Assembly (NCBI GenBank): GCA_964402035.1
Contig: CAYOAM010000001.1
Coordinates: 307,558-371,557, forward strand
Direction of reading: 5' to 3'
Length of the DNA: 64,000 bases
From: an uncultured Candidatus Saccharibacteria bacterium
GTDB lineage: Bacteria > Patescibacteriota > Minisyncoccia > Phycocordibacterales > UBA918
The notes under the pieces are model-generated. The model made no database searches and had not been told where the DNA came from. It worked only from the letters and a program-made list of their open reading frames with translations. The position numbers were made by a program, and so were the translations under genes. This document shows positions 3,959 to 53,472 of this stretch, one piece after another (position 1 is the first letter of the stretch; every line of letters starts with the position of its first letter).

Positions 3959-4741
3959 CTACTGCACGAGATATTCAGCCTCTACCGTAAATGCTACCGT
4001 ATATGTAAGTCCTGTTTCGGGTACCGCTATGAGACCATCTTTTTTCGTTTCAAAGAAACCATCACCATCATCCACAAACATGCGTGCAGACAGAGTCTCA
4101 CCCTCAACAAGGGTGCGAGACAGCGGTACAGTCACCTGCCGCATCTCTTTGGCAGAGAGAAGGCTGCTCGTACCCACAATAGCCTCACTACTGTCATATA
4201 CGACCACATATCCATCAGTGGTGAGTGTTGCGAAGAGTTGCACATACGGCATTGCATTATGGACAGGTAGTACCTCAATATAGGGTACCGATGCTGCCCC
4301 TTGCTTGCCCATGGTACGAGTACTATCGTCTGCGGGAGCCATCATTGAAAATGAAGAGGTGTCTTCTATCGGACTGTTATAGAGCATGTCTTCAGTTGTC
4401 GGTATCGCGGACTCCGTGCGTGGCAAATCTTCAAGTGACGTGGGTACAGGTGATCGCGGAGTTTCAATAAGCATCAGAAGCAAAACGGCAACAGCCCCAA
4501 CCGGTGCAACGCGCACTAGCCACCAACGCACATTTTCTGCATACGGAGATGGTGTGGCGGGTTTTATATTTGAAGAAAGTACGCGCATACGGAGATTTTG
4601 GATAAAATCAAAATCAATAGGCACTTTGGGATGTGCATCGATGAGCACAGAAACGACTGCACGCACTTCTGCGTCACGCTCCTTAAGCGTCGCATCAAGC
4701 GCATATATGTCGCGAAGTATCTTGTCGAGATCTTTGTCCAT
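3959..4741 (-). CDS. putative membrane-spanning anti-sigma factor
   Basis: Immediately downstream of ECF sigma gene (37-bp gap), cytoplasmic N-terminal ~90 aa, single TM (WWLVRVAPVGAVAVLLLMLI), extracytoplasmic C-terminal domain; assignment by context only. Confidence 0.5.
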   Translation of the reverse strand: MDKDLDKILRDIYALDATLKERDAEVRAVVSVLIDAHPKVPIDFDFIQNLRMRVLSSNIKPATPSPYAENVRWWLVRVAPVGAVAVLLLMLIETPRSPVPTSLEDLPRTESAIPTTEDMLYNSPIEDTSSFSMMAPADDSTRTMGKQGAASVPYIEVLPVHNAMPYVQLFATLTTDGYVVVYDSSEAIVGTSSLLSAKEMRQVTVPLSRTLVEGETLSARMFVDDGDGFFETKKDGLIAVPETGLTYTVAFTVEAEYLVQ

Positions 4742-4777: not shown

Positions 4778-5344
4778 CTACTGCAAAAATCGTGCACACA
4801 ACACGAGAATAGCGGCTTTTGCCCCAAAGGTGTCACGAACCGTCCGAATAGCGCGTGAAAATGCCATTTTGACACTATCTTCCGAACCCCCCACCACTGC
4901 AGCAATTTCTTTATAGGAGAGCTCATCCCACACCCGAAGCATAACAATTTCACGCTGCGTTGGCTTCAGTGTGTGCAGATACTTTTCAATTTTTTGTACG
5001 GTATCGCGAGCATCTATCTTCTCTTCTGTCCGCTCATCTTGACCGAGGTCAAAAATATCTTCAATATCCACCACCGTCTTTTTGGTGCGGTAGTAATCAA
5101 CAACCGCATTGCGCGCTATGGCATAGAGCCATGATGAAAATGAGCCTTTATCAGATTTAAAACTGCCAATCTTCTCAAATGCCTTGAGAAACGTGGCGGA
5201 CACTATGTCCTCGGTTGCGTCCTTGTTGAAGGTCTTGTAGTAGACAAATCGATAAATTTTTTCTACATATCTATCATAAAGCGCACCAAATGCTTGTGTG
5301 TCACCCTTTTGGCATTTCTCAACAAACACGCGATCATCTTCCAT
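4778..5344 (-). CDS. RNA polymerase ECF-type sigma-70 family factor
   Basis: Region 2 (FLKAFEKIGSF...WLYAIARNAVVDYYR) and region 4 HTH (REIVMLRVWDELSYKEIAAVVGGSEDSVKMAFSRA). Confidence 0.9.
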   Translation of the reverse strand: MEDDRVFVEKCQKGDTQAFGALYDRYVEKIYRFVYYKTFNKDATEDIVSATFLKAFEKIGSFKSDKGSFSSWLYAIARNAVVDYYRTKKTVVDIEDIFDLGQDERTEEKIDARDTVQKIEKYLHTLKPTQREIVMLRVWDELSYKEIAAVVGGSEDSVKMAFSRAIRTVRDTFGAKAAILVLCARFLQ

Positions 5345-5809: not shown

Positions 5810-6406
5810 TTATACCGTATTGCGTGCATTTTTCAGTAACTGTGCCCACCAAATGAGTTCTTCAATAAGCCGATCAGCACTACCTTCGTTTGGTGCAAAT
5901 GCTTTTTCCTTTAGACTGCCATTTGCTTCAAGCAGATCCCACGGTGAAACTATATGCACGGCACTTTTAAGTGGTACAAGTCCAACATCAATCACGACTT
6001 GTCGCAATTGCTCAACGGCGCGCACAGCTCCGTATGTTCCGTATCCGACAAATGCCGAAGGCTTTTTATTCCACTCTTTTTTTAAGTGATCAATATTGTT
6101 TTTGAGTGATGCGGGGTAGCCGTGATTGTACTCGGGAGTTACAAATACAAAACCATCAGTATTAGCGATCTTCTCTGCCCAACGGTCTATGTCTGGTTTT
6201 CCATAGGCTCCCAATACTTTACTGGGAGATACAGCCTCTGCAAACATCAGCAACGGATAGTCTTTGAGATCCAGGAGTTCAACTTCGACATCTTCCTTAT
6301 TTGAAAGAAGATCAGCGATCCAGTGTGCGGGTTTATCACCAAATCGTCCCTCACGGATACTTCCGATCACTACTCCTATACGTATTTTTTCTTGCATAGT
6401 CGGCAT
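5810..6406 (-). CDS. NADPH-dependent FMN reductase family flavoprotein (NAD(P)H-dependent oxidoreductase)
   Basis: RIGVVIGSIREGRFG N-terminal flavodoxin-like motif, FVTPEYNHGYPASLKNNIDHL. Confidence 0.85.
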   Translation of the reverse strand: MPTMQEKIRIGVVIGSIREGRFGDKPAHWIADLLSNKEDVEVELLDLKDYPLLMFAEAVSPSKVLGAYGKPDIDRWAEKIANTDGFVFVTPEYNHGYPASLKNNIDHLKKEWNKKPSAFVGYGTYGAVRAVEQLRQVVIDVGLVPLKSAVHIVSPWDLLEANGSLKEKAFAPNEGSADRLIEELIWWAQLLKNARNTV

Positions 6407-6430
6407 TATAACTTTATTTGATCACAGAAT

Positions 6431-6467
6431 ACAGAAGCGCCAGCCTTAAGGCTGGCGCTTCTGTATT
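6431..6467. terminator. perfect 17-bp inverted repeat hairpin downstream of 6648..7970 gene
   Basis: ACAGAAGCGCCAGCC-TTAA-GGCTGGCGCTTCTGT; second palindrome ACTTGGGAGTTGAACTCCCAAGT at 6489-6511; T-runs weak. Confidence 0.4.
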
Positions 6468-6647
6468 TGCTACAGTTCAGATTCTGCACTTGGGAGTTGA
6501 ACTCCCAAGTCATCCCAACAAAGTACACATCTTCATAAACCTTCAAGTTCAAGGCGGCAAGTCAAAATACTACGAGACATATGGGGTTATATGGTGAGTA
6601 GTATTTTGATGCAGCCAACGCAGAAATTGAAGGTTTTGAAATGTGGA

Positions 6648-7949
6648 CTAAAATTCGTCGCGTGCTTCGTCGATCAAGTCAAGTGCTTCATCAATCAAAT
6701 CCTCTGCCTCACTTTCATCACCATCACTGATTGCATCGTCAGCATCGTCAAGGAGGTCTTGCGCTTCATCGAGCAAATCTTCAGCATTACCGACATCTTC
6801 CCCATCATCAAGTGCATCTTCCACATCATTTTCTACATCATTGAGTTCATCTTGTGCGTCTTCAAGCTGATTCTCAATATCGTCATTGTCACTACTATCA
6901 TCATCGTCATCACTATTATTCTCATTTCCTATCGCATCAAGCGCTTCATCAACGGTATCTTCTGCTTCTTCTGCAAGATCGATCGCCTCATCATAATCCT
7001 CGTCGTCAAATGCACTTTCAGCATCATCGAGTAAATCACGTGCATCATCGAGAAGGTCATTTGCCTCATCTACGTCATCACCATCATCCTCTGCTTCATC
7101 GATATCGTCCTGCGCATCATCAATCTGACCATCGACATCATCAATAAGATCATCTGCCTCACTCTCTTCAGTGTCTCCCCCTGCATCCTCAATGGCATTT
7201 TCAGCGTTCTTTTGTGCATCCTCTGCTGCATCAAGTGCATCCTCAAAATCATCACTGAAAAATGCTTTGACCGCATCGAGGAAATCATCTTTTGCATCTT
7301 CTAAGTTCTCGCGTGCAGATGCGATATCAGCTGCGTCCGTATTATCATCGACTGCATCTTCAGCGTCGTCGATAGCATCGAGTGCATCCTCGATTGCAGC
7401 GCGCGCATCTGACTCGTCAGAATCAATAGCGTCCTCGTCTTCCGTATCATGCTTTGTTACGGATGTCGCAAGAGGAATATTTTGTGTTTTGAGGGTTGTG
7501 TTTAGTTGTGCTTGTAACTGTGCGAGTTGCAACTCGAGATTTTTTTGAGCCGATGTTGCTGCTCCCTGTACTTCACCCACCCCTCCACCTGCGACAAGTT
7601 CTTCATACTTGGCACGCGATTGAGATCCAAAATAGCCTATCGCAGGAGAGAGCTTATTGGCCTGCTGCCACTTAATGACGGCAAGCTCGGTCAGTGTCTT
7701 AAACTCACCGGTCTCATGCCCTGCAGATCCAACACCACTTTCAGCAATAGTGTAGCCTGCACCATTGAGATATTGCTGCAAGCAGCGCACATCCTCTCCT
7801 TCAACACCAAATTCTAGATTTCGATTAAATGTGCAAGTGTCGGCGCGTACAGTAACCGGCGCGAGCACGATGAATAATGTACTCACAATAGCGAGCAGCA
7901 CACCAAGCGTGTGCCGCTCCGTTATACTTTTTACTGAAATATTTATCAT
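6648..7949 (-). CDS. secreted peptidoglycan-binding (PG_binding_1) protein with ~300-aa hyper-acidic D/E-rich repeat tail
   Basis: Signal-anchor then CLQQYLNGAGY...TLTELAVIKWQQANKL PG-binding domain; coiled-coil; tail ~40% Asp/Glu with 14-aa repeats (xDLLDxAxDLLDDA); likely start MINISVK at 7949 (ORF open to 7970). Confidence 0.8.
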   Translation of the reverse strand: MINISVKSITERHTLGVLLAIVSTLFIVLAPVTVRADTCTFNRNLEFGVEGEDVRCLQQYLNGAGYTIAESGVGSAGHETGEFKTLTELAVIKWQQANKLSPAIGYFGSQSRAKYEELVAGGGVGEVQGAATSAQKNLELQLAQLQAQLNTTLKTQNIPLATSVTKHDTEDEDAIDSDESDARAAIEDALDAIDDAEDAVDDNTDAADIASARENLEDAKDDFLDAVKAFFSDDFEDALDAAEDAQKNAENAIEDAGGDTEESEADDLIDDVDGQIDDAQDDIDEAEDDGDDVDEANDLLDDARDLLDDAESAFDDEDYDEAIDLAEEAEDTVDEALDAIGNENNSDDDDDSSDNDDIENQLEDAQDELNDVENDVEDALDDGEDVGNAEDLLDEAQDLLDDADDAISDGDESEAEDLIDEALDLIDEARDEF

Positions 7950-8039
7950 ATACGCACCAGTATACAGCACACAGATATATGTGCACTGTTTATTTCCTGT
8001 TGATCAGTTGCAGCGCAACGGACGCTACCTGAACCTCGT

Positions 8040-9290
8040 TTAGTTTGTCGCAATCAAGGCTACTTTTTTTCCTCGTCGAACGTGCGCTATGCCATTCTTA
8101 AAATCCGCAACTTCAATTGCTTTATGTATATCAACAACAGTTATCTCATTGACGGCAACACCCTTCTGTTCAATAAGTCGTCGGGCTTCGCCCTTCGATG
8201 TTGCTAGTCCTGTCTGCGTGAGGATATCAATCATTGTTGTGCCAATTGCGACTTTTGTTAGTGGTACTTCTTTACGTATAAACGCCACATCCTGTTTGCT
8301 CATTGTCGCAAAGTCTCCTGCTCCATAGAGTATCTCAGATACCCGTGAAGCACTCTCTGCAGATGTCACTCCGTGAATCATCGTCGTAATCTCATGTGCC
8401 AGTGCTTTTTGTCCAATACGCATGTGCGGTGCAGCTTCATGTGCCGCAAGTATTTCAGCAATGTTCTGTAGCGACAGAAAGGTAAAGATCTTCAAATACT
8501 CTGGCAGACCTTCATCTGATACGTTGAGCCAAAACTGATAGAAAGCAAATGGCGATGTGAGCTTTGGGTCAAGCCATACAGCATTTCCTTCTGACTTTCC
8601 AAATTTCTTGCCAGTTTTTTTATCCGTGATGATGGGTGTCGTGAGTGCGTACGCATTTCCCCCCTCTCTACGTCGTACGAGTTCAACGCCTGAGATAATA
8701 TTCGCCCATTGGTCCGAGCCACCTACCTGCAGATCAACGCCATACTTTTTATACAAATGCCAGAAATCGTACCCCTGCAAAAGCGAATATGAAAATTCTG
8801 TATAGGAAATAGAATCTTCCTCCGTATCGAGACGCTTCTTGATAATATCTCGCTTAATGAGCTGATTGACCGTGAAATGCTTTCCGGTATCACGAAGAAA
8901 TTCGATGAGCGATACCTTCCTAAGCCAGTCATAATTGTCATAGATTTTAAATTTCTTCTTTCCCAAGACCGATGCTAGCTGCGCCGTAATCGCTTTTTTA
9001 TTCTGTGCGACAATTTTCAAATCAAGGAGCTGTCTCTCCCCACTTTCTCGCGGATCCCCAATCATGCCAGTGCCGCCACCGACAAGAAAAACCACTGTAT
9101 GACCTGCATCAGCCAAATGCTTCATCATAAAGATAGGTACCAGATTCCCCACATGGAGTGATGCTGCTGTTGGGTCGATACCGAGATACACGGTGCGTTT
9201 TTGAGCAAGAAACTCTTGCGCTGTACCACCACCTTCATGCACGATAAATCCGCGCTCCTTAAGATCTGCTGTAATATTTTCAATCTTCAT
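8040..9290 (-). CDS. tyrS: tyrosine--tRNA ligase
   Basis: HIGH motif (HVGNLVP), KMSKS motif (KFGKS), C-terminal S4 domain; likely start MKIENITADL at 9290 (ORF extends to 9338). Confidence 0.95.
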   Translation of the reverse strand: MKIENITADLKERGFIVHEGGGTAQEFLAQKRTVYLGIDPTAASLHVGNLVPIFMMKHLADAGHTVVFLVGGGTGMIGDPRESGERQLLDLKIVAQNKKAITAQLASVLGKKKFKIYDNYDWLRKVSLIEFLRDTGKHFTVNQLIKRDIIKKRLDTEEDSISYTEFSYSLLQGYDFWHLYKKYGVDLQVGGSDQWANIISGVELVRRREGGNAYALTTPIITDKKTGKKFGKSEGNAVWLDPKLTSPFAFYQFWLNVSDEGLPEYLKIFTFLSLQNIAEILAAHEAAPHMRIGQKALAHEITTMIHGVTSAESASRVSEILYGAGDFATMSKQDVAFIRKEVPLTKVAIGTTMIDILTQTGLATSKGEARRLIEQKGVAVNEITVVDIHKAIEVADFKNGIAHVRRGKKVALIATN

Positions 9291-9363
9291 AATGTGAGGA
9301 ATTATAGAGAGATTATTGCATTGTGTCCATGAGGCCATCTACCAGTAGTGGTATTATGCACCT

Positions 9364-11424
9364 ATGAAGAAGGTCCTTATAGTGATTGCCTTCCTTGGAG
9401 TTTTGCTGCTACTCGGTAGTTATGCCCTCCATCGAGACGGGTTAGCAAAATACCAAGGCCTCGGTTCTGTTGTAACACTTGATCGCTACCTAAAACCGAT
9501 CAGCATCAAGGAAAATGCAAAAGGTCTCTATGTATTTGAGACCGAGTCCATTCCCGTAGCGTTCAAAAAACTCCTGGTACAAAAGGAGGACGCGTACTTT
9601 TACTACCATCCAGGAATAAATCCCATAAGCATGGTGCGTGCACTGACACACTATTTTTTTACAGGACGAATTGGAGGATCAAGCACGCTCACACAGCAAC
9701 TTGCAAAAAATCTCTTGGGTACTGAATCAAACAGGACCATCTACAATAAAGTAAAAGAGACTGCCTACGCGATAAGTCTCGAAATATTTCTTTCAAAAGA
9801 ATCTATTCTCTCGATGTATGCAAACACGGTTTTTTTAGGAAACCAAGTGCAGGGATTTGAAACAGGGAGCTATGCGTATTTTGATAAGCCACTCAAGGAA
9901 ACAACAACAAATGAACAACTTGCGCTACTCGCGACCCTCTCGCACCCAAGCACCAGAAATCCATGGGAAAAAGACAATGCAGTGTACGCCGAAGCTTTAC
10001 ACAAAGAGCTCGCTCCCGATACAACGTTTATACCGGCGAAAGTCACAACCGCGTATGCTTTTCAAACAAAAAGTGCGTTTGAATTGGATTCTGCAGCTAT
10101 CACATGCACATCGACCTGTACGACCACCATCGATCTAAAACTCAATGAGTTTATACGAAATGCGATCCAAAAATATACTGAAACAGAGTCTGCACGTGGT
10201 GCACGCAATGGCGCCGTCGTCGTGATTGATCCAAAAAATTCTGAACTGCTTGCGCTTGTGGGCAGCCCTGACCCAACAAGCACAAAGGACGGCAACCGGA
10301 TCAACATGGCGCTCGCGCCACGCCCTATTGGCTCTACCGTTAAACCTCTCCTCTATCTCAAGGGATTTATGGAAGGATTGCGCCCGTTTACACTTGTTGA
10401 AGATCGCGAATACAAATATCCCATAGCGACTGGTTTTTCACTGTATCCAAAAAACTATGATGGGAAATATCGCGGCACGATCACGCTCCATGAAGCACTG
10501 AGCAACAGTCTCAATGTGCCCTCAGTCAAAGTCCTTGAATATATTGGACTTGAAAAATTCTATGGCTATCTTTCAGAATCATTGCATTTCAAACCAATAC
10601 AGGATTATGACAGTTACCAGTATGGCATCGCACTCGGAGGACTTGAAATGGATCTTCTCTCACTCACCCACTATTTCACGATCTTTCCACGGTACGGTAC
10701 CCGCGCACAGCTCAAAACAATCCTCACTGCTGCAGATCAACCAACACTACCCCCACAATCACACATAGATACGACCGAGATCGTTGCAGATCCTAAATAT
10801 GTTGAACTCGTCAATGCTATTTTGAGTGATCGATTTACCGGTGTTGAGCAGTTTGGACTTGCGAGCAACTTAAACCTGACCACCAAAGAGTACGGTGTAA
10901 AGACAGGCACCTCACGCGATTTTCATGATAGCTGGGTCGTGGGGTATACACCTGATTTTGTCGTAGGTGTCTGGATTGGAAACACTGAAAATGAAGCACT
11001 GGAGCAAGTGAGTGGGCAGTCGGGTGCTGGTGTCGTGTGGCATGAAGTTATGGAGTACCTCCTCGCTTCTCCCTACCACACAGACACGACGTTTATTACC
11101 AAGGATATTGTAAGTGTACCCATTGGCAATTCAAATCAATGGGGTCTTGCCGGTGACAAAATCGCAACGATACAGAGCCTGCTTCAAAAAAATAATCTTA
11201 TCCTGAGTGTGCACGATGGCGATACATTTGAATTTACAAACGACACCACCATCCCACTGCGCGCGCGCAACCGCGTCTCGTGGACAGCAAATGGTAAGCC
11301 ACTTGGTGAAGGCGAAGAAGTGTTTTTCAAACCAACAGCCGCCGGCAACTATGAAATCACTGCTACTGATCCGCTCTTAGGCAATCGAGAGATTCTGCTT
11401 ATCAAGGTAGTTTCGCGAGACTAG
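9364..11424 (+). CDS. class A penicillin-binding protein (glycosyltransferase GT51 + transpeptidase) with PBP1C-type C-terminal beta-sandwich domain
   Basis: GT51 motifs (TLTQQLAKNL), SxxK (STVK), SNS (SNSLN), KTGT; C-terminal VSWTANGKPLGEGEEVFFKPTAAGNYEI resembles PbpC C-terminal domain. Confidence 0.9.
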   Translation: MKKVLIVIAFLGVLLLLGSYALHRDGLAKYQGLGSVVTLDRYLKPISIKENAKGLYVFETESIPVAFKKLLVQKEDAYFYYHPGINPISMVRALTHYFFTGRIGGSSTLTQQLAKNLLGTESNRTIYNKVKETAYAISLEIFLSKESILSMYANTVFLGNQVQGFETGSYAYFDKPLKETTTNEQLALLATLSHPSTRNPWEKDNAVYAEALHKELAPDTTFIPAKVTTAYAFQTKSAFELDSAAITCTSTCTTTIDLKLNEFIRNAIQKYTETESARGARNGAVVVIDPKNSELLALVGSPDPTSTKDGNRINMALAPRPIGSTVKPLLYLKGFMEGLRPFTLVEDREYKYPIATGFSLYPKNYDGKYRGTITLHEALSNSLNVPSVKVLEYIGLEKFYGYLSESLHFKPIQDYDSYQYGIALGGLEMDLLSLTHYFTIFPRYGTRAQLKTILTAADQPTLPPQSHIDTTEIVADPKYVELVNAILSDRFTGVEQFGLASNLNLTTKEYGVKTGTSRDFHDSWVVGYTPDFVVGVWIGNTENEALEQVSGQSGAGVVWHEVMEYLLASPYHTDTTFITKDIVSVPIGNSNQWGLAGDKIATIQSLLQKNNLILSVHDGDTFEFTNDTTIPLRARNRVSWTANGKPLGEGEEVFFKPTAAGNYEITATDPLLGNREILLIKVVSRD

Positions 11425-52560: not shown

Positions 52561-53472
52561 ATGATTCAAAAATATGAAGGCACAGGCGTGACGTGGATAG
52601 ATCTCCTCACACCTTCACCAGAAGAAGTCCGTGCCATCATGGAAGAGTGCAATATTCCGCCAGAACTCCTCGGTGACCTCACGACCCCGGTACCGCGCTC
52701 TGAAGGTACCGCTTCCGGGAACACGATAAAGATCAATATAGATTTTCCTGTCGTCAAACAAAAAGAGATTGAGCGCACGCATGAGATCAAGTTTCTGATT
52801 AGCCAAAAGACGCTGATTACGGTGCGCTACGAAGAAATTACCGCGCTCCATACCTTTGGAAAGGAATTCGAAGTTCTTTCAACACTAAAGCGTGCGACAA
52901 AGGGAGTGAGCGGCGCAACGCTCTTTATTGCACTTATGGGAACCCTCTACGACAGCCTTGCATCAAAACTCGACTACACAGAATCGCGCCTCGCATTTAT
53001 CGAGCAAGAAATGTTTGAAGAACGCGAACGAGAAATGGTGTTTGAGATTTCACGCCTGAGCCAAACCTTGATCACGTTCAAACAAATACTTTTTTCACAC
53101 AAAGAAGTACTGGAATTAGTGCAACCAAAATTTATCACCATTTTTGGCGATGAATTTGAGTCACACTTGAGCGACTTGGCAACGTACTACCAATTTCTCA
53201 CACGACGTGTGAGCACCCTTACCGATTCACTCCACGAACTCCGCGATACCAACAACTCTCTGCTTTCAACGAAACAGAACGAGACAATGAAAGTGCTCAC
53301 CATCATGGCGTTTGTCACCTACCCACTCACCCTTATTTCGTCCGTGTTTGGTATGAATACGGAACACACGCCTTTTGTGGGGGGCGCCTACGGTTTTTGG
53401 ATAATTATTGGTATTATGGCGGCTGCCGCTTCTTTACTCTTTATTTACTTCAAGCATAAAAACTGGTTATAA
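52561..53472 (+). CDS. corA: CorA family magnesium/cobalt transporter
   Basis: C-terminal YPLTLISSVFGMN signature + 2 TM. Confidence 0.9.
   Translation: MIQKYEGTGVTWIDLLTPSPEEVRAIMEECNIPPELLGDLTTPVPRSEGTASGNTIKINIDFPVVKQKEIERTHEIKFLISQKTLITVRYEEITALHTFGKEFEVLSTLKRATKGVSGATLFIALMGTLYDSLASKLDYTESRLAFIEQEMFEEREREMVFEISRLSQTLITFKQILFSHKEVLELVQPKFITIFGDEFESHLSDLATYYQFLTRRVSTLTDSLHELRDTNNSLLSTKQNETMKVLTIMAFVTYPLTLISSVFGMNTEHTPFVGGAYGFWIIIGIMAAAASLLFIYFKHKNWL

Follow-up and report, generated by a model that had tools for sequence, protein, structure and literature searches.

DUF4398 (PF14346) is an uncharacterised helical domain defined on short lipoproteins, mostly of Proteobacteria, which are often encoded beside OmpA-type wall-binding proteins. 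Papers that mention this domain do so once each and, judged by title and abstract, deal with unrelated subjects. Presented in our work is a 64,000-nucleotide stretch of DNA (hereafter the window) from an uncultured Candidatus Saccharibacteria bacterium (assembly GCA_964402035.1, contig CAYOAM010000001.1, positions 307,558 to 371,557), and specifically one minus-strand gene whose product matches DUF4398 above the Pfam cutoff, with one stretch in each of three acidic repeat units. The typical DUF4398 protein is a short single-domain lipoprotein; in contrast, the window protein has 433 amino acids (aa), and its DUF4398-like part is triplicated, extremely acidic, fused to a PG_binding_1 domain and not preceded by a lipobox. 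Its host also belongs to a single-membrane lineage, unlike the usual setting of DUF4398. Judged from residue conservation and structure models, the acidic tail is a string of three folded three-helix domains and not a disordered stretch.

Concerning function, the closest analogues are found among other polyanions. Wall teichoic and teichuronic acids resemble the window protein in being wall-attached polyanions that are expected to concentrate divalent cations and set the surface charge. Teichoic acids, however, are phosphodiester-linked polyol polymers covalently ligated by LCP enzymes, while the window protein is ribosomally made and folded, bears carboxylate charges and would be attached non-covalently. 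Calsequestrin and the acidic proteins of halophile type share with it a very high Asp/Glu content, an expected low-affinity and high-capacity cation binding and an expected counter-ion-dependent structure, but the acidity of the window protein is above that of both. Moreover, calsequestrin is built of thioredoxin-like domains, a fold unrelated to three-helix bundles, and no sequence or structure match to calsequestrin or halophile-type proteins was obtained. Concerning architecture, the domains of protein A, the GA modules and the Ebh FIVAR-GA rods are likewise wall-anchored strings of small three-helix bundles. The window protein differs from these Gram-positive proteins in its anchor, which is PG_binding_1 and not LPXTG or LysM, and in a uniformly acidic surface with no shaped ligand face, and Pfam detected no sequence relationship between them. 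The best local structural match to a single unit is 4fzo/4fzp, an engineered uranyl-binding protein with a single three-helix domain and a designed metal site. Functionally, then, wall teichoic acids and calsequestrin-type proteins stand closest, and architecturally the Gram-positive tandem three-helix proteins; none of them is homologous.

The N-terminus of the window protein reads as a Sec-type signal peptide with a Lys/Arg n-region, a 20-aa hydrophobic core and a V-R-A end before D37. Equivalent segments in the homologues end with VHA, SHA, SEA, TQA or SYA followed by xxC, and cleavage would be expected after V-R-A. The A-D-T-C preceding the first Cys does not form a lipobox. The PG_binding_1 domain follows, PF01471 scoring 33.1 bits (cutoff 23, E = 6e-8) over residues 51-102, and the same domain was found in 69 out of 69 family members. 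Across the 69-sequence alignment C39, C56, L57, Q58, L61, N62, W94 and Q95 are invariant, and a C39-C56 disulfide is likely to staple the domain. AlphaFold models it as a compact three-helix fold (residues 52-63, 85-97 and 109-120) with a predicted local distance difference test score (pLDDT) of 93-96, and the family profile gave weak matches to solved structures bearing PG_binding_1 (4xxt, 7rum and 1lbu, E = 0.008-0.011). Binding of peptidoglycan by the N-terminal domain is what these sequence features suggest. The initial annotation had proposed a cell-wall-binding protein with a PG_binding_1 domain and an extreme polyanionic region, and the signal peptide, the above-cutoff PF01471 match shared by all 69 relatives and the charge measured below bear this out. 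The domain is connected to the acidic region by a linker, in which pLDDT falls below 50 at residues 123-135 and 159-173; linkers of the homologues at the same place are rich in Pro, Ser, Thr and Ala. A coiled coil had been proposed here: a helix is indeed predicted, but it is a single Gln/Leu-rich amphipathic one, modelled with modest confidence.

The acidic region begins after residue ~176 and extends for 257-265 aa, with 46% Asp/Glu, 2.6% Lys/Arg and a net charge of about -111 to -116. Among 257 residues there are 81 Asp against 37 Glu, 8 Gly and no Pro. The protein as a whole is a clear outlier among the 39 window open reading frames (ORFs), with 32% Asp/Glu compared to 3-17% in the others. 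The extreme acidity of the tail was thus correctly noted in the initial annotation, while its size and composition (~300 residues, ~40% Asp/Glu) need a slight correction to the values above. A hidden Markov model (HMM) of the repeat unit, built from the family, places three copies of a ~84-aa unit at residues 177-258, 260-341 and 353-433. Pairwise alignments of the units scored 8.3, 3.7 and 11.1 standard deviations (z) above composition-preserving shuffles, none of the 300 shuffles reaching the observed score, and with z up to 11 the units are related beyond their composition. DUF4398 was matched with 51.3 bits against a cutoff of 27.9 (E = 1.7e-13) in three stretches, one per unit, the best of which covers residues 275-336 of unit 2 and positions 2-62 of the 78 of the model; 66 of the 69 relatives match the same family in Pfam. 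Besides DUF4398 and PG_binding_1, Pfam returned only DUF1771, V_ATPase_I and YtxH at E ≤ 1, and NCBIfam holds no family-specific model, every match being far below its cutoff. The low-complexity unit of ~14 aa described before (xDLLDxAxDLLDDA) does not stand as the repeat: it corresponds to two heptads of helix 2 and is clear only in units 2 and 3.

In order to define the conservation pattern, 206 units from 69 proteins were aligned over 84 columns. In 27 of the 84 columns at least 60% of the residues are Ala or hydrophobic, several of them with 0% acidic residues. The core columns are 100% apolar, and a sharp periodicity of 3.5 residues runs through all three helices. Another 32 columns are at least 60% acidic, and Asp and Glu swap freely within them (in column 44, for example, the top residue reaches 42% and acidic residues together 83%). 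Apart from the acidic columns, no conserved surface residue or non-acidic patch was seen in the 206 units. As exposed positions appear to be selected for being acidic while the residue itself is interchangeable, function would depend on charge and not on a shaped binding site.

Structure prediction by AlphaFold2 with the 69-sequence alignment gave a mean pLDDT of 85.4 and values of 93-98 across the three units; the only residues below 50 were 1-6, the two linker segments mentioned above and 345-353. Without an alignment, units 2 and 3 were still modelled at 81-95. The predicted template modelling score (pTM) of the alignment-based model was only 0.45, so that the prediction is one of beads on a string whose bundles take up no set orientation to one another. 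AlphaFold is blind to ionic conditions and biased toward idealised helical sequences. Foldseek searches with both models returned no match at E ≤ 0.001 and no global relative. The local match to 4fzo/4fzp has a probability of 0.98-1.00, a target TM-score of 0.70-0.75 and a root-mean-square deviation of 2.2-2.3 Å over 74-77 residues with 23-24% identity, but as its E-value is only ~2-4 the likeness reflects a shared simple fold and not homology. DNA-mimic proteins were absent among the 50 best Foldseek matches, and a single-sequence search of solved structures returned nothing meaningful. The best matches of the family profile to solved structures were de novo designed helical bundles, again pointing to an idealised helical sequence rather than to homology.

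Homologues with acidic tails and a PG-binding domain, for which the initial annotation had suggested a search, turned out to be abundant. A search of 5.8 billion clustered proteins at E ≤ 1e-5 found 315 homologues, and the best 120 of them share the same architecture, with 34-54% identity and a coverage of mostly 90-100%. Those with a taxonomic name belong to Paceibacteria, Kaiserbacteria, Nomurabacteria or the "Patescibacteria group", and are labelled "peptidoglycan-binding protein". When each GTDB species was represented by a single genome, a relative was found to be encoded in at least 272 of them. By their titles, the best 80 of these 272 comprise Parcubacteria, Paceibacterota, Kaiser-, Nomura-, Wolfe- and Vogelbacteria, Minisyncoccia and unclassified metagenome-assembled genomes, some of the 80 being titled "uncultured Candidatus Saccharibacteria", possibly a pipeline label. 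The nearest relative in this survey is ~51% identical. Additionally, when the profile was run without a filter against 1.84 billion representatives, 880 clusters (50% identity) were obtained at E ≤ 1e-30, some of which are giant surface proteins sharing only the PG-binding subtype.

Members of this PG_binding_1 and DUF4398 family of Patescibacteria, such as P0042 (Paceibacteria), P0043 and P0061 (Kaiserbacteria) and P0062 (Nomurabacteria), align with the window protein at 96-100% coverage and 37-51% identity. They share its order of parts: signal peptide, xxC, PG_binding_1 with a second invariant Cys, linker, two to four units and a terminal ALDE[LFI]. The unit HMM, run on 121 proteins, counted two units in 21, three in 90 and four in 9 of them, and protein length scales with unit number. 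Of the 120 homologues, 100 have L, F, I, W or V as their last residue, mostly as …ALDE[LFI] (DEL in 49, DEF in 13 and DEI in 8); the window protein ends in …EARDEF, compared to the consensus ALDE[LFI]. Tails of the 120 homologues have a median of 41% Asp/Glu (range 27-52%) and a median net charge of -82, and by both measures the window protein, with 46% and a net charge of -118 in this comparison, is among the more acidic members. It is identical to no catalogued sequence. Since public databases already contain hundreds of relatives in which these domains are called, the family counts as existing but uncharacterised, and the window protein is, by its sequence, a further divergent member of it and not a new system. 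No study of the family was found in the published literature searched (DUF4398, Patescibacteria wall proteins, teichoic acid and metaproteomics). Some relatives carry the name HEPN, which was examined and rejected: 6 of the 69 touch the HEPN model, and the two inspected cover only positions 1-38 of its 117. For the window protein there was no HEPN match at E ≤ 1. A full HEPN domain has the active-site motif R-x(4-6)-H, whereas the window protein has only three His residues, each of them ahead of residue 177 and none within the units.

The PG-binding subtype itself has a wider range. In P0124, P0152, P0166, P0211 and others it occurs in two to four tandem copies or at the C-terminus of giant surface proteins, which have Ig-like domains and reach 4210 aa. 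P0124 has four tandem copies without the two cysteines. The subtype looks like a lineage-wide wall anchor.

Regarding gene neighbourhoods, three relatives on long contigs lie in unrelated surroundings. Of the window's neighbours, only a sigma-factor homologue turns up again among 80 loci (in 4 of them), and even the most frequent neighbouring family occurs in just 10 of the 80; the gene thus stands alone. In one of the three long contigs, Kaiserbacteria contig JAGQMH010000004.1, the homologue (6001-7518) and three unrelated genes interrupt the ribosomal protein operon, with rplB on one side and rpsS on the other. Such a location is unusual for a protein of the cell surface and might point to strong expression.

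Taken together, we tentatively favour, at somewhat less than even confidence, a peptidoglycan-tethered string of folded polyanionic bundles that would give the wall a fixed negative charge and low-affinity cation exchange. On this view, a bacterium of Patescibacteria type (Paceibacteria/Parcubacteria-like) would export the protein to its surface by the Sec route, and after cleavage of its signal peptide the N-terminal PG_binding_1 domain would attach non-covalently to peptidoglycan. A flexible linker of ~55 aa would then carry three consecutive DUF4398-like three-helix bundles of ~84 aa, each predicted to have a small Ala/Leu/Ile core and solvent-facing positions that are nearly all Asp or Glu. 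The bundles may act as a genetically encoded wall polyanion, placing fixed negative charge in the envelope and holding a counter-ion cloud (Mg2+, Ca2+ or polyamine) as a low-affinity, high-capacity cation exchanger, and they might also repel or sequester charged molecules. Several findings agree with this reading. A high density of fixed negative charge lies beside a putative wall anchor and behind a signal peptide, acidity with interchangeable Asp and Glu is a trait of the family as a whole, and the distribution of a stand-alone gene over at least 272 species genomes and 880 clusters is housekeeping-like.

Other observations weigh against such a role. The EF-hand pattern (PROSITE-type) is present neither in the window protein nor in any of 120 relatives, and DxDxDG is likewise missing from the window protein; it occurs in 22 of the 120 relatives and in 278 of 1000 shuffled tails, which is no enrichment. 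With no canonical Ca2+-binding motif, any cation binding would be diffuse and electrostatic. Folding at about -0.45 charge per residue is not assured, considering the AlphaFold caveats and the matches to designed bundles. A role like that of teichoic acid needs a very high copy number, no publication bearing on the family was found in the literature searched, and the occurrence of a GDSL hydrolase or a globular domain beside the acidic units in some relatives fits a stalk at least as well.

The analogy to teichoic acid put forward in the initial annotation is plausible, as are the proposed roles in cation buffering and autolysin control. No teichoic-acid Pfam family was found among the ~40 ORFs scanned in the window, which says little about the whole genome. 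Cells of the candidate phyla radiation look monoderm with an S-layer, according to one report (PMC6146748), and another indicates that one Patescibacteria genus may use rhamnose polysaccharides instead of teichoic acids (PMC11809585). A bolder version of the polyanion reading, to which we give little credence, is that Paceibacteria-type Patescibacteria rely on this folded, polyanionic protein as the chief anionic polymer of their wall, i.e., a ribosomally made stand-in for teichoic acid that would buffer or scavenge Mg2+ and Ca2+ in dilute freshwater or groundwater and whose folding would require a load of counter-ions. What is known of the Patescibacteria cell envelope comes mainly from imaging and gene inventories, and here is a widespread stand-alone family, among the most acidic folded-looking bacterial proteins, that bears only a generic label. 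Should this family turn out to supply an abundant polyanion of the wall, it would follow that proteins can take over a task for which phosphate-rich polymers normally serve; this would be a cheap solution under scarce phosphate and biosynthetic capacity, and a clue to how ultra-small cells manage cations and surface charge.

The main rival reading, on the whole unlikely yet with a real share of the probability, is that of a charged stalk or spacer. Here the tail would be a semi-rigid rod, repelled by itself and by the wall, which holds an enzyme, the S-layer or a partner at a set distance or spaces wall layers, the charge being only the means. The beads-on-a-string prediction, with high pLDDT within each unit and a low pTM overall, suits a stalk, and the variation from two to four units would resemble a length ruler. 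Two relatives join the same anchor and acidic units to other domains: in P0131 (977 aa) two sets of acidic units flank a GDSL/SGNH hydrolase domain, while P0181 (594 aa) has a Cys-rich globular domain C-terminal to them, suggesting that the acidic bundles may be a reusable stalk module. However, nothing follows the units in the window protein and most relatives, 90 out of 121 having exactly three, and as the chain ends in a conserved helix terminus no cargo is visible. There is also no conserved neighbouring gene suggesting a partner. Were the protein only a charged stalk, it would still be a reusable module in the surface proteins of the lineage.

A specific binding module or adhesin is less probable still. 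In that case the bundles would bind a defined basic ligand, such as a host-cell surface component, a basic S-layer or pilus protein, or an autolysin, cationic peptide or lysozyme to be trapped and neutralised. Patescibacteria are thought to live attached to hosts, and tandem three-helix bundles anchored to the wall are found repeatedly in binding proteins, as in Staphylococcus protein A and the GA modules; the three-helix fold of the units is supported by AlphaFold and the 4fzo/4fzp match, and an acidic surface suits basic ligands. On the other hand, the surface is one of interchangeable Asp and Glu with no conserved non-acidic patch, none of the helical modules known to bind ligands was matched in Pfam at E ≤ 1, and no partner gene is co-located.

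A disordered polyanionic tail, acting as an entropic bristle or flexible spacer, is very unlikely. This had been offered as an alternative in the initial annotation, which described the tail as low-complexity. The charge-hydropathy plot, taken alone, does point to disorder, with all three units on the "natively unfolded" side, and the composition is heavily biased. Nevertheless, strictly conserved apolar positions in 3.5-residue register, modular ~84-aa units in whole-number copies, an above-cutoff DUF4398 match, a lack of proline with few glycines and the high pLDDT of the units all argue for folded domains. Counter-ion-dependent folding would be the simplest reconciliation of a helical signature with an unfolded-side charge-hydropathy value, and under the folded-bundle reading the folded state probably requires that counter-ions be bound.

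Finally, an artefact, i.e., a frame error, a collapsed repeat or a true gene on the plus strand, is hardly credible: although the plus strand of the region also holds three ORFs (97-147 aa), the minus-strand protein aligns over its full length with 315 homologues (coverage up to 100%, 47-51% identity), carries two Pfam domains above cutoff, ends at the family-conserved C-terminus and shows no frameshift relative to its relatives. The gene has 440 codons when read from the GTG at 7970 to the stop codon at 6648-6650 (Table 1). The ATG at 7949, giving the 433-aa form, is the likelier start, because the homologues show a comparable distance between the N-terminus and the first conserved Cys; homologues cover this form by 96-100%, and residue numbers throughout refer to it. 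All domain and homology evidence is confined to the minus strand, and no homologues or domains were seen for the plus-strand ORFs. Over parts of the acidic region all three plus-strand frames are open, and according to codon counts the composition of these ORFs is what is expected from antisense GAT, GAC, GAA, GAG and GCA codons, which makes them shadows of the gene, as had been proposed for the His-rich and the Ser/Ala-rich one. The Ile-rich ORF had not been noted before. Tandem Repeats Finder detected five short tandem repeats in the DNA, with ~2 copies each and periods of 9-21. The lack of any long DNA repeat excludes a collapsed repeat or assembly artefact and indicates that the repeat is old and has diverged at the nucleotide level. 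A promoter and terminator scan was uninformative.

Table 1. Features of the gene, its product and the surrounding window (window positions in nucleotides; residues of the 433-aa form)
Feature	Window position	Residues	Strand	Basis or content
Whole ORF	6648..7970		minus	ORF list; homologue coverage
Putative Sec-type signal peptide	7842..7949	1-36	minus	Sequence reading; homologues; helix 10-28 in model
PG_binding_1 domain	7587..7835	39-121	minus	Pfam PF01471; model helices; invariant columns
Linker	7422..7586	122-176	minus	Low pLDDT; Gly/Ser/Thr-rich segments flank one helix
Gln/Leu-rich amphipathic helix	7485-7550	134-155	minus	pLDDT block means 52, 71, 63
Acidic three-helix unit 1	7176..7421	177-258	minus	Unit HMM E 4e-20; net charge -25
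Unit 1 predicted helices		177-202, 209-231, 235-255	minus	pLDDT ~89-97
Acidic three-helix unit 2	6927..7172	260-341	minus	Unit HMM E 6e-27; net charge -41
Unit 2 predicted helices		261-288, 294-315, 319-339	minus	pLDDT 93-98
Acidic three-helix unit 3	6651..6893	353-433	minus	Unit HMM E 1.3e-22; net charge -38
Unit 3 predicted helices		355-381, 389-408, 412-432	minus	pLDDT 95-98
Shadow ORF, Ile-rich, 147 aa	6591-7034		plus	Overlaps 3' part of gene
Shadow ORF, His-rich	6854-7147		plus	Antisense to acidic tail
Shadow ORF, Ser/Ala-rich	7171-7548		plus	Antisense to acidic tail
DUF7282 protein	3959-4741			
ECF sigma factor	4778-5344			
FMN reductase	5810-6406			
tyrS	8040-9338			
Class A penicillin-binding protein	9364-11424		plus	PbpC-type C-terminal domain (BiPBP_C)
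Bacterial alpha-2-macroglobulin, 2222 aa	13952-20620		minus	MG2, bait region, A2M, TED, bMG10
Shedu protein, 430 aa	26212-27504		minus	SduA C-terminal nuclease domain (E 4e-28)
RHS-repeat protein, 2818 aa	29539-37995		minus	SpvB, FG-GAP, RHS repeats, Ig-like, LysM near C-terminus
Second PG_binding_1 protein, 628 aa	47934-49820		minus	Signal peptide; C-terminal anchor (E 1e-16)
CorA Mg2+ channel	52561-53472			

Within the window the gene is present as a single copy and sits between the FMN reductase gene and tyrS. Beyond tyrS lies a divergently transcribed class A penicillin-binding protein (PBP), and an extracytoplasmic function (ECF) sigma factor is encoded further downstream. No tRNA gene and no Rfam family at its gathering threshold was found in the 64-kb window. 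A second PG_binding_1 protein is also encoded there, with a Pro/Thr/Val-rich repeat linker (PVPTPVPVP…), a central region without Pfam match and a non-acidic composition (6% Asp/Glu).

Other genes of the window are reported here as separate observations. The alpha-2-macroglobulin gene lies ~2.5 kb from the class A PBP, with a tetratricopeptide repeat protein and a small ORF between them, in the classic A2M/PbpC pairing. The RHS-repeat protein resembles, in its domain content, a polymorphic toxin or a surface protein, and GC skew reaches an unusual +0.23 at 30-32 kb. Shedu is an anti-phage defence gene; it is located in the lowest-GC stretch of the window (36.5%, 26-28 kb) and adjoining ORFs have no Pfam match, so that there may be a small defence island here. 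The window also encodes a CorA Mg2+ channel. Finally, the ECF sigma factor adjoins a DUF7282 protein, which may be its anti-sigma partner.

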